Sequence record: NC_019500.1
DNA: 64,000 nt
Direction: 5' to 3' (one strand)
Source: Escherichia phage Bp7
The notes below the pieces were generated by a model that was not told where the DNA came from, searched no databases, and saw only the letters and a program-made list of their open reading frames with translations. This document shows, piece by piece, positions 18,157 to 62,251 of the stretch (position 1 is its first letter; every line of letters begins with the position of its first letter). Position numbers and translations under genes: made by a program.

Positions 18157-18348
18157 ATGAGTGCAATGTGTACGGGCTCTAAGATTTCTGTATTCGAATT
18201 ATTCGAAGAGTATGAAATCGTATCAAAGGACCAAGAAGCTATCCATATTATTGCCGGTGATGGTGTGACTTGGATTATCCCACTGTATCATGAAGATACC
18301 TATGAAGTCACTGATGCGAATGGTGATAAAGCTATTTTCGTAATATAA
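18157..18348 (+). CDS. hypothetical protein
   Basis: 63-aa ORF. Confidence 0.3.
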   Translation: MSAMCTGSKISVFELFEEYEIVSKDQEAIHIIAGDGVTWIIPLYHEDTYEVTDANGDKAIFVI

Positions 18349-18364
18349 ATAAGGCCAGGAGCCT

Positions 18365-18564: not shown

Positions 18565-19593
18565 ATGTCATATGTCGATAAAGAATTTGCTGTACGTGCC
18601 TTGAATTACCAACCTAAATTCAGACAAGTAACTGGTAGTGATTTTAAATTAAACTGTCGTTGTCGTGTATGCGGTGACTCTCAAAAAGATGAGAACAAAG
18701 CTCGTTTTTGGGCCTATCCGGCTAATGACGGCTCTGTAATGCTGCACTGTTTTAACTGTGACTATTCAGCAGGAATTAAGAAGTATCTATACGAATACGA
18801 GCCTGATTTATATCGCGAATATATTCTTGAGAAACATAAAGAGCAATCGTTCGGGAGACAAGCTGCACCTAAGGTGGAGATATCTGAAAAAATTAAAGCT
18901 AAGATGCCTGTCATCGAAAAGCTTAATTTCTGTGAACGATTAGATAGGATGCCGAAGGACCATCCTATTATCAAATATGTGACGTTACGTTGCATTCCTG
19001 AAAACAAATGGAACCGGCTGTGGTTTACTAAAGAATGGCCTGCATTAGTTAACTCTGTGAATCCAGGGACCTATTCTAAAGAAATGCCTGAGCCTCGTTT
19101 GGTTATTCCAATTTTCAATAAGAATAAACAAATTGAAAGTTTTCAGGGTCGAGCCTTACGTAAAGATGCTCCACAAAAATATATTACAATAAAAGCTCAC
19201 GACCAAGCTACAAAAATATATGGAATGGATACAGTTGACGAACGTCAGTTGGTGTGGGTAATGGAAGGCCCTATTGACTCTTTGTTTGTTCCGAATGCAA
19301 TAGCAATTACTGGCGGGTCGTTGGACTTGGCTATGGTTCCGTGCAAAGAAACTAGGGTTTGGGCCCTTGATAGCGAAAGCCGCCACCCAGATACTATTTC
19401 AAGAATGAAAAAGCTTATCGAGGCTGGTGAAAAAGTAGTGTTTTGGGATAAGGTCCCTTGGCCTTCTAAAGATATTAACGATATGATTAGAAAAGACGGG
19501 GCGTCGCCGGAAGCAATACTAGAATATATGAAAAGTAATTACAGTCAAGGATTAATGGCTAAATTGAGATTACAACGGTATGCTAAAATATGA
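18565..19593 (+). CDS. 61: gp61 DNA primase
   Basis: 342 aa; zinc ribbon CRCRVCGD...CFNC; FQGRALRKDAPQKYITI resembles T4 gp61. Confidence 0.9.
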   Translation: MSYVDKEFAVRALNYQPKFRQVTGSDFKLNCRCRVCGDSQKDENKARFWAYPANDGSVMLHCFNCDYSAGIKKYLYEYEPDLYREYILEKHKEQSFGRQAAPKVEISEKIKAKMPVIEKLNFCERLDRMPKDHPIIKYVTLRCIPENKWNRLWFTKEWPALVNSVNPGTYSKEMPEPRLVIPIFNKNKQIESFQGRALRKDAPQKYITIKAHDQATKIYGMDTVDERQLVWVMEGPIDSLFVPNAIAITGGSLDLAMVPCKETRVWALDSESRHPDTISRMKKLIEAGEKVVFWDKVPWPSKDINDMIRKDGASPEAILEYMKSNYSQGLMAKLRLQRYAKI

Positions 19594-20345
19594 ATTATAA
19601 TAAAATTTATGACGATTTGGTTAATAGGGCCCTTGAAAGGGGTCTTATTAAAGAAAATTTAAAATACTATACAGAATCTCATCATATTATACCTGAATGT
19701 ATAGGTGGGCCTGATATAGATTCAAACAAAGTATTATTTACGGCAAGAGAGCATTTTATAGCTCACATATTATTGTATAAGATTTATAAGTTGCCTAAAT
19801 TAATATATGCTGTGCATATGATGTGCAATTCTAGTGAAAAGCACCAAAGAAATTCTAAGATGTATGACTGGCTTAGAAAGGACCATAAAGCAGCCTTAAG
19901 TAAGAAAATGACCGATGCTTGGAAAGCCCCTGAATTTAGGACCAAAATGGTGGCGGCCTTATACCAAAGGCACAAAGATAAGCCCGTCACAGAGGAGACT
20001 AGGGAAAAACAGTCTAATTCTCTAAAGAGGTATTATAAAGAAAATCCTATCTCTGAAGAAGCAAAAAAGAAAAATTCAGAAGCCCAAAAACAAAGGTTTA
20101 AAGATAGGCCTCAAACAGAAGAAACAAAAAGATTAAGGAAGGACTCATGCAGAAAAACCCAAGGCACCCCTATATGGTTATGTAATTCGAATGGGGTAGG
20201 AATAGAAAAGTTTTCTTCTGCGGCAGAAGCTAAAGAAATCTTAGGATTGTCCGGGCACACCCAAAATATATACACCGCTTGTAAGCGAAACAAAGAAACC
20301 GGGAGATTGTATAAATCCTCCGGTTTAATTTGGAAATATCAATAA
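19590..20345 (+). CDS. HNH homing endonuclease (Mob-like), paralogous to the 592-1308 gene
   Basis: HHIIPECIGGPD; N-terminus MNYNKIYDDLVNRALERG parallels MNYKSIYEKLIQRAVNR; AT-rich with AGA/AGG/ATA codons; start overlaps the gp61 stop (ATGA). Confidence 0.7.
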   Translation: MNYNKIYDDLVNRALERGLIKENLKYYTESHHIIPECIGGPDIDSNKVLFTAREHFIAHILLYKIYKLPKLIYAVHMMCNSSEKHQRNSKMYDWLRKDHKAALSKKMTDAWKAPEFRTKMVAALYQRHKDKPVTEETREKQSNSLKRYYKENPISEEAKKKNSEAQKQRFKDRPQTEETKRLRKDSCRKTQGTPIWLCNSNGVGIEKFSSAAEAKEILGLSGHTQNIYTACKRNKETGRLYKSSGLIWKYQ

Positions 20346-20351
20346 TGGCAT

Positions 20352-20552
20352 TTAAACCTGCATACCTGTAAAGAATCCAATGATGCTCAACACGTGTTCC
20401 ATAGTAACCGCAGGGAGAGTAATACCCTGACTAGCCGCAACAGGTACAACTAAAAGATTCCATAGGAACACATCTAAAGCAAGGAAGCCCATCATGAGCT
20501 TTTTATCTTTCTTGCTGGTTAATTTCCAAATTTGGTAAAATATACTACCCAT
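20352..20552 (-). CDS. small membrane protein with a late promoter (minus strand)
   Basis: 66 aa with two hydrophobic segments; GGAGGA RBS; reverse-complement TATAAATA upstream. Confidence 0.4.
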   Translation of the reverse strand: MGSIFYQIWKLTSKKDKKLMMGFLALDVFLWNLLVVPVAASQGITLPAVTMEHVLSIIGFFTGMQV

Positions 20553-20573
20553 GTTATCCTCCTGTTAAATTAA

Positions 20574-20581
20574 TATTTATA
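20574..20581 (-). promoter_or_regulatory. T4-type late promoter TATAAATA
   Basis: tatttata on the plus strand, about 22 nt upstream of the minus-strand ATG at 20552. Confidence 0.4.
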
Positions 20582-20584
20582 GCT

Positions 20585-20608
20585 TGCTTTACAAATTAAT
20601 GATATAAT
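20585..20608 (+). promoter_or_regulatory. MotA-dependent middle promoter
   Basis: TGCTTTA at 20585-20591, 11-bp spacer, TATAAT at 20603-20608; upstream of gene 56. Confidence 0.45.
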
Positions 20609-20651
20609 TATCTAACTTATTACCTAATATGAATCGAAAAGGAAAAATATA

Positions 20652-21167
20652 ATGGCTCATTTTAACGAATGTAGTGGTTTGATTGCAGGTGTTGATAAAG
20701 CTGAGGAAGCTTATGTTAGTGCAATTACCAAAGGTATCGACCCACTGCAGGTTATGCTTGATATGCAGAAATCTTTACAGGTTCGTCTGGCTAATGACCG
20801 TGATTATTGTTACCACCCGGATAAACTGGCTACTGCAGGTGATGTTGTTGGATGGATGCGCGAACAGAAAGACTGCATCGATGATGAATTCCGTGAACTT
20901 CTGACTTCACTTGGTGAAATGTCTAAAGGTGAGAAAGATGCTTCTGCCGTCTGGAAAAAATGGAAGGCACGTTACCCAGAAGCTCAGTCTAAACGTATTG
21001 ATGAAATGAGCCCTGAAGACCAGTTGGAAATTAAATTTGAACTTGTGGACATAATCCATTTCGTATTAAACATGGTTACAGGTCTTGGTATGACTTCTGA
21101 AGAATTGTTCAAACTTTATTATCTGAAAAATCTTGAAAATTTCAAACGTCAGGACAATGGGTATTAA
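20652..21167 (+). CDS. 56: gp56 dCTPase (dCTP/dCDP pyrophosphatase)
   Basis: 171 aa; MAHFNECSG...VMLDMQKSLQVRLAND...CIDDEFRELLTSLGEMS resembles T4 gp56. Confidence 0.6.
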   Translation: MAHFNECSGLIAGVDKAEEAYVSAITKGIDPLQVMLDMQKSLQVRLANDRDYCYHPDKLATAGDVVGWMREQKDCIDDEFRELLTSLGEMSKGEKDASAVWKKWKARYPEAQSKRIDEMSPEDQLEIKFELVDIIHFVLNMVTGLGMTSEELFKLYYLKNLENFKRQDNGY

Positions 21168-21170
21168 TCA

Positions 21171-21178
21171 GTATAAAT
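21171..21178 (+). promoter_or_regulatory. T4-type late promoter TATAAATA upstream of soc
   Basis: gTATAAATAc about 33 nt upstream of the soc ATG. Confidence 0.45.
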
Positions 21179-21210
21179 ACACCTGTAATTAAACAACAAA
21201 GGAGTTAATT

Positions 21211-21444
21211 ATGGGTGGTTTCGTTAATATCAAAACCTTTACGCATCCGGCTGGTGAAGGTAAAGAAGTTAAAGGTGTTGAAGTATCTGTTCCGTTTGAA
21301 ATCTATTCAAACGAGCATCGTATTGCGAATGCACACTATCAGACATTTCCTTCTGAAAAGGCGGCATACACTACTGTAGTAACTGATGCAGCCGATTGGC
21401 GAACTAAGAACGCGGCGATGTTTACGCCTACCCCAGTAGTTTAA
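21211..21444 (+). CDS. soc: Soc small outer capsid protein
   Basis: 77 aa; VNIKTF...AHYQTFPSEKAAYTTV resembles T4 Soc. Confidence 0.6.
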   Translation: MGGFVNIKTFTHPAGEGKEVKGVEVSVPFEIYSNEHRIANAHYQTFPSEKAAYTTVVTDAADWRTKNAAMFTPTPVV

Positions 21445-21449
21445 TTATA

Positions 21450-21477
21450 AGGAACCTTCGGGTTCCTTTTTTGGTTT
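21450..21477 (+). terminator. intrinsic terminator with UUCG tetraloop
   Basis: aggaaccTTCGggttcc followed by ttttttggtttt. Confidence 0.6.
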
Positions 21478-21482
21478 TAAGG

Positions 21483-21512
21483 GTTTACTTTCTAGGAAGG
21501 CCGTGTTAAGAT
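21483..21512 (+). promoter_or_regulatory. early promoter cassette
   Basis: gtttac, 18 bp, tgtTAAGAT, then gaggag RBS. Confidence 0.4.
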
Positions 21513-61891: not shown

Positions 61892-62185
61892 ATGAGAGTT
61901 TGCAGAGTTGTTAACAAGTATAAAGAAGACTTTGATGTCAATATCCAACGTGGAACTATGTGGGGTAATCCATTTAAAGTTGGAACCCGCGAGGAAAACA
62001 TCAAGAACTTTAAAGAATACTTTATTGCTAAAATAAAATCGGGCGAAATTAAAAGAGAACATCTTGAAACCCTTAGAGGTATGCGTATAGCGTGTACCTG
62101 TAAACCTAAGGACTGTCATGGGGATGTGATAGCCCTGGTTGTTAACAAACTTTTCAAAGACACGTTCTCATTAGAAGACCTATAA
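61892..62185 (+). CDS. DUF4326-like protein
   Basis: WGNPF ... LRGMRIACTCKPKDCHGDV pattern. Confidence 0.4.
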   Translation: MRVCRVVNKYKEDFDVNIQRGTMWGNPFKVGTREENIKNFKEYFIAKIKSGEIKREHLETLRGMRIACTCKPKDCHGDVIALVVNKLFKDTFSLEDL

Positions 62186-62251
62186 ATATCAGTCCATGCT
62201 TAACAGGTTCTATGATAGAATAATTATAGAACCTAACATATTGAGGAAATT

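Follow-up and report, generated by a model that had tools for sequence, protein, structure and literature searches.

The small leftward gene between gene 61 and gene 56 of Escherichia phage Bp7 is, by sequence comparison, the ortholog of T4T dam.1 and RB69ORF029w. We analysed it within a window of 64,000 nucleotides (NC_019500.1), to which all coordinates refer unless another record is named. Considering the locus as a whole, we lean towards the explanation that this dam.1 ortholog is a late leftward gene whose product resides in the inner membrane and has an accessory role at the end of the infection cycle. The gene is already known: it is catalogued as PSD2002_0015, T4T dam.1, RB69ORF029w and PHROG 2024, and it is annotated as hypothetical in many records. 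Since the small gene is the counterpart of T4 dam.1, the layout is an ordinary, conserved T-even genome organization. It is also a neat case of T4-type promoter logic, in which a late promoter and a MotA-type middle promoter lie back to back within about 35 bp and serve the two directions at separate times.

Sequence identity over the region 19500-21500 is 98% with Escherichia phage PSD2002 (Dhakavirus, Tevenvirinae) and about 80% with JS98-type phages; the window as a whole is a Dhakavirus (T4-like) genome. The plus strand carries early and middle genes, and the minus strand carries late genes, which include the tail fibres and holin t according to the PSD2002 annotation. On the plus strand, the primase gene 61 (18565-19593) is followed by an HNH homing endonuclease gene (19590-20345; phrog_655, E=2e-52). 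Further along are gene 56, encoding a dCTPase (20652-21167; phrog_173, E=3e-42; labelled dCTP pyrophosphatase in PSD2002), and soc (21211-21444). The small gene occupies 20352-20552 of the minus strand, including the stop codon, and lies between the endonuclease and gene 56. The sequence-only reading of this DNA had described an oppositely oriented gene embedded in an early region, and this description holds, as the ORF sits within the early/middle block and shares its strand with the tail fibres and holin t. The MotA and anti-sigma genes of the window are known through the annotation of the nearly identical PSD2002, which lists a 'MotA activator of middle period transcription', an 'anti-sigma factor' and gp33; the positions of the first two map inside the window. 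In our reading, the anti-sigma factor occupies the position of T4 asiA. The start of the homing endonuclease gene overlaps the gene 61 stop, and among the matches this endonuclease is shared with PSD2002 only. In IME08 (L003 3247-3903), the small gene is flanked on its opposite side by a different endonuclease gene, mobE, and in T4 dam and segF are found near the gene 61-56 junction. The junction looks like an insertion hot spot.

Judged from sequence conservation, the small ORF is a genuine protein-coding gene under strong purifying selection. Its translation (MGSIFYQIWKLTSKKDKKLMMGFLALDVFLWNLLVVPVAASQGITLPAVTMEHVLSIIGFFTGMQV, 66 aa) matches phrog_2024 with E=5e-28 (5.1e-28), residues 1-64 being aligned to profile positions 1-64 of 65, and PHROG 2024 is annotated as 'unknown function'. 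PSD2002_0015, which is annotated as a hypothetical protein, has exactly the same sequence (100% identity). Comparison with JS98-type orthologs gives a pN of 0.09-0.10 and a pS of 0.75-0.79 (0.09 and 0.79 against JS98 itself), with synonymous sites saturated, and dN/dS of the small gene is 0.09-0.2. Tequatrovirus orthologs compared among themselves give dN/dS values of 0.12-0.22. This purifying selection, together with the conservation, led us to reject a chance ORF. A tblastn search with the window ORF found relatives in 126 phage records (Dhakavirus, Marfa-like Klebsiella phages, Gaprivervirus, Kanagawavirus, Moonvirus and Gelderlandvirus), and a search with the T4 ORF found relatives in 693. 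Family members adjoin the primase gene at every locus examined from these matches. The Shine-Dalgarno sequence AGGAGGA (20557-20563, minus strand) lies 5 nt before the ATG, and GGAGG or AGGAG is kept at the orthologous loci of T4-like phages. The earlier proposal of a 66-aa minus-strand membrane protein with a GGAGGA ribosome-binding site is borne out by the profile match, the pN and pS values, the hydrophobic product and the presence of this site.

The T4 ortholog is missing from the reference annotation. NC_000866 and AF158101 leave a 310-bp unannotated gap between gene 61 and dam, which contains a 66-aa opposite-strand ORF (NC_000866 17738-17938 (+), corresponding to L004 2739-2939 (+)). 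This ORF matches phrog_2024 with E=4.6e-31 and is preceded by an AGGAGGA site and by GATAAATA, and its stop overlaps the gene 61 stop in the palindrome TTTAAA. The ortholog is named dam.1 in T4T, RB69ORF029w in RB69 and RB32ORF030w in RB32. Because it is left unannotated in NC_000866 and AF158101, studies that rely on the annotation of these records miss the gene. Our literature search found no paper naming dam.1, RB69ORF029w, RB32ORF030w or phrog_2024, and it found nothing relevant on ribosome profiling or small proteins in T4.

The genomic position is a family feature. The gene is convergent with gene 61, on the opposite strand and upstream of gene 56, in T4, T4T, RB69, VR25, Marfa, CIP9, Moon, CGG4-1 and one further locus (L022), and the annotated ends of gene 61 and dam.1 overlap by 4 nt in T4, RB69, VR25, Marfa, CIP9 and Moon. 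The same position is seen in the window, with the homing endonuclease gene inserted between gene 61 and the ORF. The window gene shares with T4T dam.1, RB69ORF029w and RB32ORF030w the family profile, the size (63-74 aa among the T4-like members aligned) and the motif W-N-x4-P...P-x-V. It also shares with them place and orientation (divergent from gene 56 or its inserts), the ribosome-binding site and the late-promoter core. However, the window gene belongs to an 'MGSIFYQIWKL...' subtype that is only about 20% identical to the T4 subtype. T4 also differs in that dam has been inserted on the far side of the gene and that position -13 of the late motif is G, whereas in the window the HNH homing endonuclease parts the gene from gene 61. 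Gaprivervirus VR25 (L007) has two members in tandem (1495-1692 and 1701-1901), a single one for each of the T4 and window subtypes, and the second lacks its own promoter motif. In phage ESCO47 there are likewise two members, with consecutive gene numbers (130 and 131). No member was found downstream of gene 61 in six T4-like groups examined, represented by Acinetobacter phage 133, an Aeromonas phage, Klebsiella phage PhiK2046, RB43, vB_Eco_SAP (listed beside a Krischvirus among the ranked primase matches) and phiR1-RT. This absence indicates that Dam.1 does not serve a core function.

The signal for late transcription is found immediately upstream of the small gene. The reverse-complement late motif proposed earlier at 20574-20581 proved to be a perfect minus-strand TATAAATA at a distance of 21 nt from the ATG, with a predicted transcription start near 20568, a little ahead of the ribosome-binding site. 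By analogy, it would be a T4-type, gp55-dependent promoter. The window contains 7 copies of TATAAATA against 6.65 expected, and because this count is at chance level the motif alone is no proof and needs outside support. Such support comes from the TAAATA core, which is about 3-fold depleted in the window on both strands (27 copies against about 90 expected under a first-order Markov model). As the core is under-represented while the full motif occurs at the expected level, the depletion suggests selection against stray late-promoter cores. The minus-strand copies of ATAAATA in the window are mostly located just 5' of a ribosome-binding site and ATG of late-strand ORFs. In each of the 15 T4-like loci compared, which represent about 11 distinct lineages, the end of TAAATA is 15-22 nt away from the ATG of the ortholog, and a GGAGG-type ribosome-binding site follows it; the remaining upstream sequence at these loci has diverged and is unrelated between genera. 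The late motif at the small gene is therefore supported by the scarcity and placement of the core, by the enrichment of the MotA pattern described below, and by the conservation of both signals in relatives.

The motif is not identical in all orthologs. The base at -13 is T in the window, Marfa and CIP9, A in JS98, RB69 and one further relative (L032), G in T4, and C in VR25 and L022, and position -12 also varies in two lineages. Since the T4 copy is GATAAATA and the copy in Moon and CGG4-1 is ATTAAATA, promoter strength may be low in some lineages. Position -13 is the least conserved position of late promoters, and single deviations occur among 50 listed T4 late promoters (PMC2988020, PMC1524935). 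The variation among T, A, G and C at -13 fits this published variation. The small gene resembles the T4 late genes that lie on the late strand within early regions and are transcribed with gp55, gp33 and gp45. The likeness extends to the 8-bp TATAAATA that lacks a -35 element, the short leader, the strength of the ribosome-binding site, and an orientation shared with the tail-fibre genes and t. The present case differs from that class in that late expression is predicted from sequence signals and in that the motif varies at -13 and, in two lineages, at -12. A T4 dRNA-seq study reports 150 phage start sites, 22 of them antisense (bioRxiv 10.1101/2024.04.04.588121).

The middle promoter of gene 56 lies on the plus strand at 20585-20608, separated from TATAAATA on the minus strand by 3 bp. 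It consists of the box TGCTTTA (20585-20591), an 11-nt spacer and the -10 element TATAAT (20603-20608), and it ends 43 nt before the gene 56 ATG (20652). This agrees with the MotA promoter consensus of (a/t)(a/t)(a/t)TGCTT(t/c)A near -30 and a -10 element TAnnnT 11-13 bp downstream. The pattern TGCTTNA-N11-13-TANNNT is enriched in the window, with 13 copies against 3.3 expected (none of 100 shuffles reached 13), and the plus strand, which carries the early and middle genes, holds 11 of them. The textbook MotA promoter that the sequence-only reading had placed beside the gene can thus be upheld, as TGCTTTA-N11-TATAAT is present, its pattern is enriched, and it is orthologous to the T4 gene 56 promoter.

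The close pairing of the two promoters recurs in related phages. A (T/C/G)GCTT(T/C)A box, an 11-12-nt spacer and TA(T/G)AAT abut the late core wherever the divergent neighbour is gene 56 or a homing endonuclease before it, namely in the window, three JS98-type phages, RB69, VR25, CGG4-1 and one dam-less Tequatrovirus, where the late core falls within the spacer of the middle promoter. The MotA-type promoter beside the small gene is conserved in JS98, RB69, VR25, CGG4-1 and L032, and it recurs in four genera. In T4, in contrast, dam lies between the middle promoter and dam.1 and keeps the two promoters apart. An alignment pairs the window sequence TTGCTTTAcaaattaatGATATAATTATcTAACTTATTA with T4 TTGCTTAcatactcaaatGATATAATTATtTAACTTATTA ahead of gene 56, and the middle promoter and leader are clearly orthologous (window 20585-20651, T4 L004 1786-1850 (-)). 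Because abutting promoters recur in relatives and the window promoter aligns with that of T4, the back-to-back layout is taken as ancestral, and the insertion of dam split it in T4. In the T4 records, the gene 56 transcript is the primer RNA of the origin oriA. By analogy, the back-to-back promoter region of the Bp7 window may coincide with a candidate oriA-like origin.

The product has the layout of a small membrane protein: a basic N-terminus and an uncharged stretch are followed by a conserved acidic residue and a tail of about 13 residues that is hydrophobic. Among seven members, the net charge of the N-terminus ranges from +2 to +7 and the uncharged stretch is 24-34 residues long (24 here, 34 in T4). 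In the window protein this stretch covers residues 28-51 and the hydropathy maximum is at residues 24-38, and together with a model helix at 14-41 they point to at least one transmembrane segment. The basic cluster is N-terminal, while the C-terminus is hydrophobic (EHVLSIIGFFTGMQV, net charge -1). An alignment of 21 diverse members, down to 20% identity, shows W31, N32, P37, P47 and V49 to be invariant, and G43 and G63 to be conserved in at least 90%. The window protein carries the family motif W-N-x4-P-x5-G-x3-P-x-V after the basic N-terminus and before the short hydrophobic C-terminus. The AlphaFold2 model contains helices at residues 2-10, 14-41 and 51-62, with a mean pLDDT of 71. The N-terminus is predicted to be cytoplasmic by the positive-inside rule. 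The Asn and Pro buried in the helix suggest that the protein may associate with itself through helix-helix contacts.

Searches beyond the family returned little. Sequence searches of Pfam, NCBIfam and the PDB yielded no meaningful match, and lenient thresholds did not change this; the best PDB match, NqrE (E=0.025), probably reflects hydrophobic composition only. Foldseek comparison of the AlphaFold2 model with the PDB and viral models returned family members or insignificant matches only. When 1.8 billion representatives were searched exhaustively with the profile, no more than 19 proteins were recovered (cluster representatives, E<0.001), all of 45-82 aa, with no link to a characterized family. 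Scans for related loci with single proteins gave 14 loci.

Seven distant members were found outside T4-like genomes, and a soluble lysozyme is encoded within a few kb in three of these seven contexts. In one operon (L012), the member is followed by genes for proteins of 180 and 109 aa and then by a soluble T4-type lysozyme gene, while no lysozyme is in view in L015, L016 or L020. On four metagenomic phage contigs, a gene for a large tail protein comes first, followed by those for a membrane-anchored coiled-coil protein (94-98 aa) and endonuclease VII and then by the family member. The large tail protein is a tail-tip homolog in L015 and L016, and the member starts at or overlaps the end of endonuclease VII in three contexts (L015, L019 and L020/L021). 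A tblastn search with the distant members P0131 and P0135 and with the L020 tail protein found no relative in a cultured phage. The steadiest neighbours of the distant members are a very basic protein of 180-196 aa, weakly similar to phrog_1924 'minor tail protein' (E=2e-7), and another of roughly 106 aa. With these two uncharacterized genes the member makes up a three-gene module whose order varies by phage type, seen at L012 6001-7123, L015 6001-7089, L016 6001-7082 and L044 6980-8213. On a small metagenomic contig (L018 129-1383), the member has CTAAATA just upstream and is immediately followed by a gene for a 352-aa RelA/SpoT-domain protein.

One distant member belongs to a prophage of E. 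coli (NZ_LR882990, about 1,814,950-1,848,680; L049 and L051). This partly degraded element of about 34 kb splits yegD, with a serine recombinase gene at one end and the Dam.1-family gene last at the other. The member overlaps the preceding ORF of the late operon and lies 1.5 kb from the only annotated lysozyme gene of the prophage and 2 kb from a gene for a DUF2730-like anchored coiled-coil protein. Of 5426 complete E. coli genomes, 25 contain the right-hand end of the prophage (3.2-kb query) in full. The lysozymes near distant members are without an N-terminal membrane segment and hence need a holin, and the only membrane proteins encoded near them are the coiled-coil protein and the family member.

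From these features, the following course of events can be proposed for the T4-like gene. Late in infection, RNA polymerase with gp55, gp33 and the sliding clamp would start near 20568 and transcribe the small gene leftward, antisense to the early-strand genes. The product would insert in the inner membrane and keep its basic N-terminus on the cytoplasmic side. Its long helix (about residues 20-41), which carries the invariant Trp-Asn pair and Pro, would span the membrane; the chain would turn at the conserved G-x3-P-x-V loop and end in a short hydrophobic helix. The buried Asn could permit self-association. The protein might then serve at the end of the cycle as an accessory inner-membrane factor in lysis timing or envelope events. 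Among specific functions, an accessory role in lysis or the envelope is the one we favour, tentatively, as a possible rather than a probable assignment. The proximity of lysozyme genes to distant members is a weak hint in this direction. The sequence-only reading had suggested a lysis regulator or a virion/membrane factor; the link to lysis comes solely from gene context in distant relatives and is weak, and the neighbours found there (the minor tail-like protein and the protein of about 106 aa) could point to morphogenesis equally well. In T4-like phages, dam.1 is not adjacent to e, t, rI or the spanin genes, or to any annotated lysis gene. Since these phages have holin T, Dam.1 is not the main holin.

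A bolder proposal is that the Dam.1 family (PHROG 2024) forms an unrecognized class of late, oligomerizing inner-membrane lysis factors. Such proteins, acting as holin partners, antiholins or lysis-timing modulators, would be common to T-even phages including T4, to unrelated tailed phages and to E. coli prophages with soluble endolysins; we regard this proposal as rather doubtful. Small class II holins and pinholins, such as S21 (68 aa) and T7 gp17.5, have about 65-75 aa. Dam.1 is similar to them in size, helical-hairpin appearance, late expression signals and the polar residue in the membrane helix, and some of its distant relatives have a soluble endolysin encoded nearby. The differences are that the charged segment of Dam.1 is N-terminal, its C-terminus is hydrophobic, its second hydrophobic segment is too short to cross the membrane fully, and a holin, T, is already present in T4-like phages and is not adjacent to dam.1. 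Membership among the classical holins was rejected, as Dam.1 has its charged end at the N-terminus in place of a charged C-terminal tail. No match to a holin, antiholin or spanin family was found in Pfam, PHROGs or NCBIfam, lenient thresholds included, and fold matches to named holins all had E>1. One family member is labelled 'Holin' in UniProt, which is an automatic name. Dam.1 is one of many conserved T-even genes without an assigned function, and if it modulates lysis or another membrane step it would be an added component in one of the best-studied phage systems.

A membrane helper of assembly and a factor related to exclusion or defence are live alternatives to an accessory lysis or envelope role. 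T4 prohead assembly begins on the inner membrane, and a small late membrane anchor could organize head, packaging or tail assembly there. Relatives outside the T4-like phages place the gene inside structural-gene operons, directly after endonuclease VII and overlapping its end in L015, L019 and L020/L021, and in the company of the basic phrog_1924-like protein and tail chaperone-like genes. However, the protein matches no structural or chaperone family and no solved structure, the T4 virion assemblies included, and several T4-like genera that build the same virion have no copy of the gene. An assembly function is unlikely in our estimate. The protein might instead block superinfection or re-adsorption of progeny, or counter a membrane-acting host defence. 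The gene is the very last one by the attachment junction in the E. coli prophage, a typical place for an accessory 'moron'; the family has two divergent subtypes, in tandem in Gaprivervirus, as is often seen for specificity-type genes; and the patchy distribution among T4-like genera fits an accessory role. Yet the known T4 exclusion genes imm and sp are early, whereas the Dam.1 gene has late signals only, and the prophage copy overlaps the preceding late-operon ORF and has no obvious promoter of its own. Pfam, PHROGs and NCBIfam give no signature of such a function, and we consider a protective role distinctly unlikely.

The remaining explanation concerns the RNA and treats the coding sequence as incidental: the late leftward transcript would act as antisense RNA, or by transcriptional interference, against gene 61 and in this phage also against the homing endonuclease gene. 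The gene does converge on gene 61, with annotated ends that overlap by 4 nt in most relatives, and the ORF is followed by no convincing terminator, there being only a weak 5-bp hairpin at 20288-20275. [quoted passage not shown] Nevertheless, strong purifying selection is seen at the amino acid level with synonymous sites saturated, lineages at only 20% identity have invariant residues in common, homologs occur in unrelated contexts without gene 61, and a near-perfect ribosome-binding site is conserved. A purely antisense role of the transcript, with incidental coding, is very improbable, and this constraint at the protein level led us to reject it. An antisense effect could be present besides, though not as the main reason that the ORF is kept.

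Further copies of the promoter motifs are found elsewhere in the window. A perfect TATAAATA at 18344-18351 (+) lies 13 nt before the ATG (18365) of a gene 61.1-like ORF, with its predicted start inside the ribosome-binding site of that ORF. Another copy, at 21172-21179 (+), is found just past the gene 56 stop and 31 nt before soc, and it is expected to be the late promoter of soc on the early strand, as in T4. At 62181-62221 (+), TATAAATA is followed after 8 nt by a MotA-type promoter on the same strand (TGCTTAA-N12-TAGAAT), and the two may be tandem late and middle promoters.
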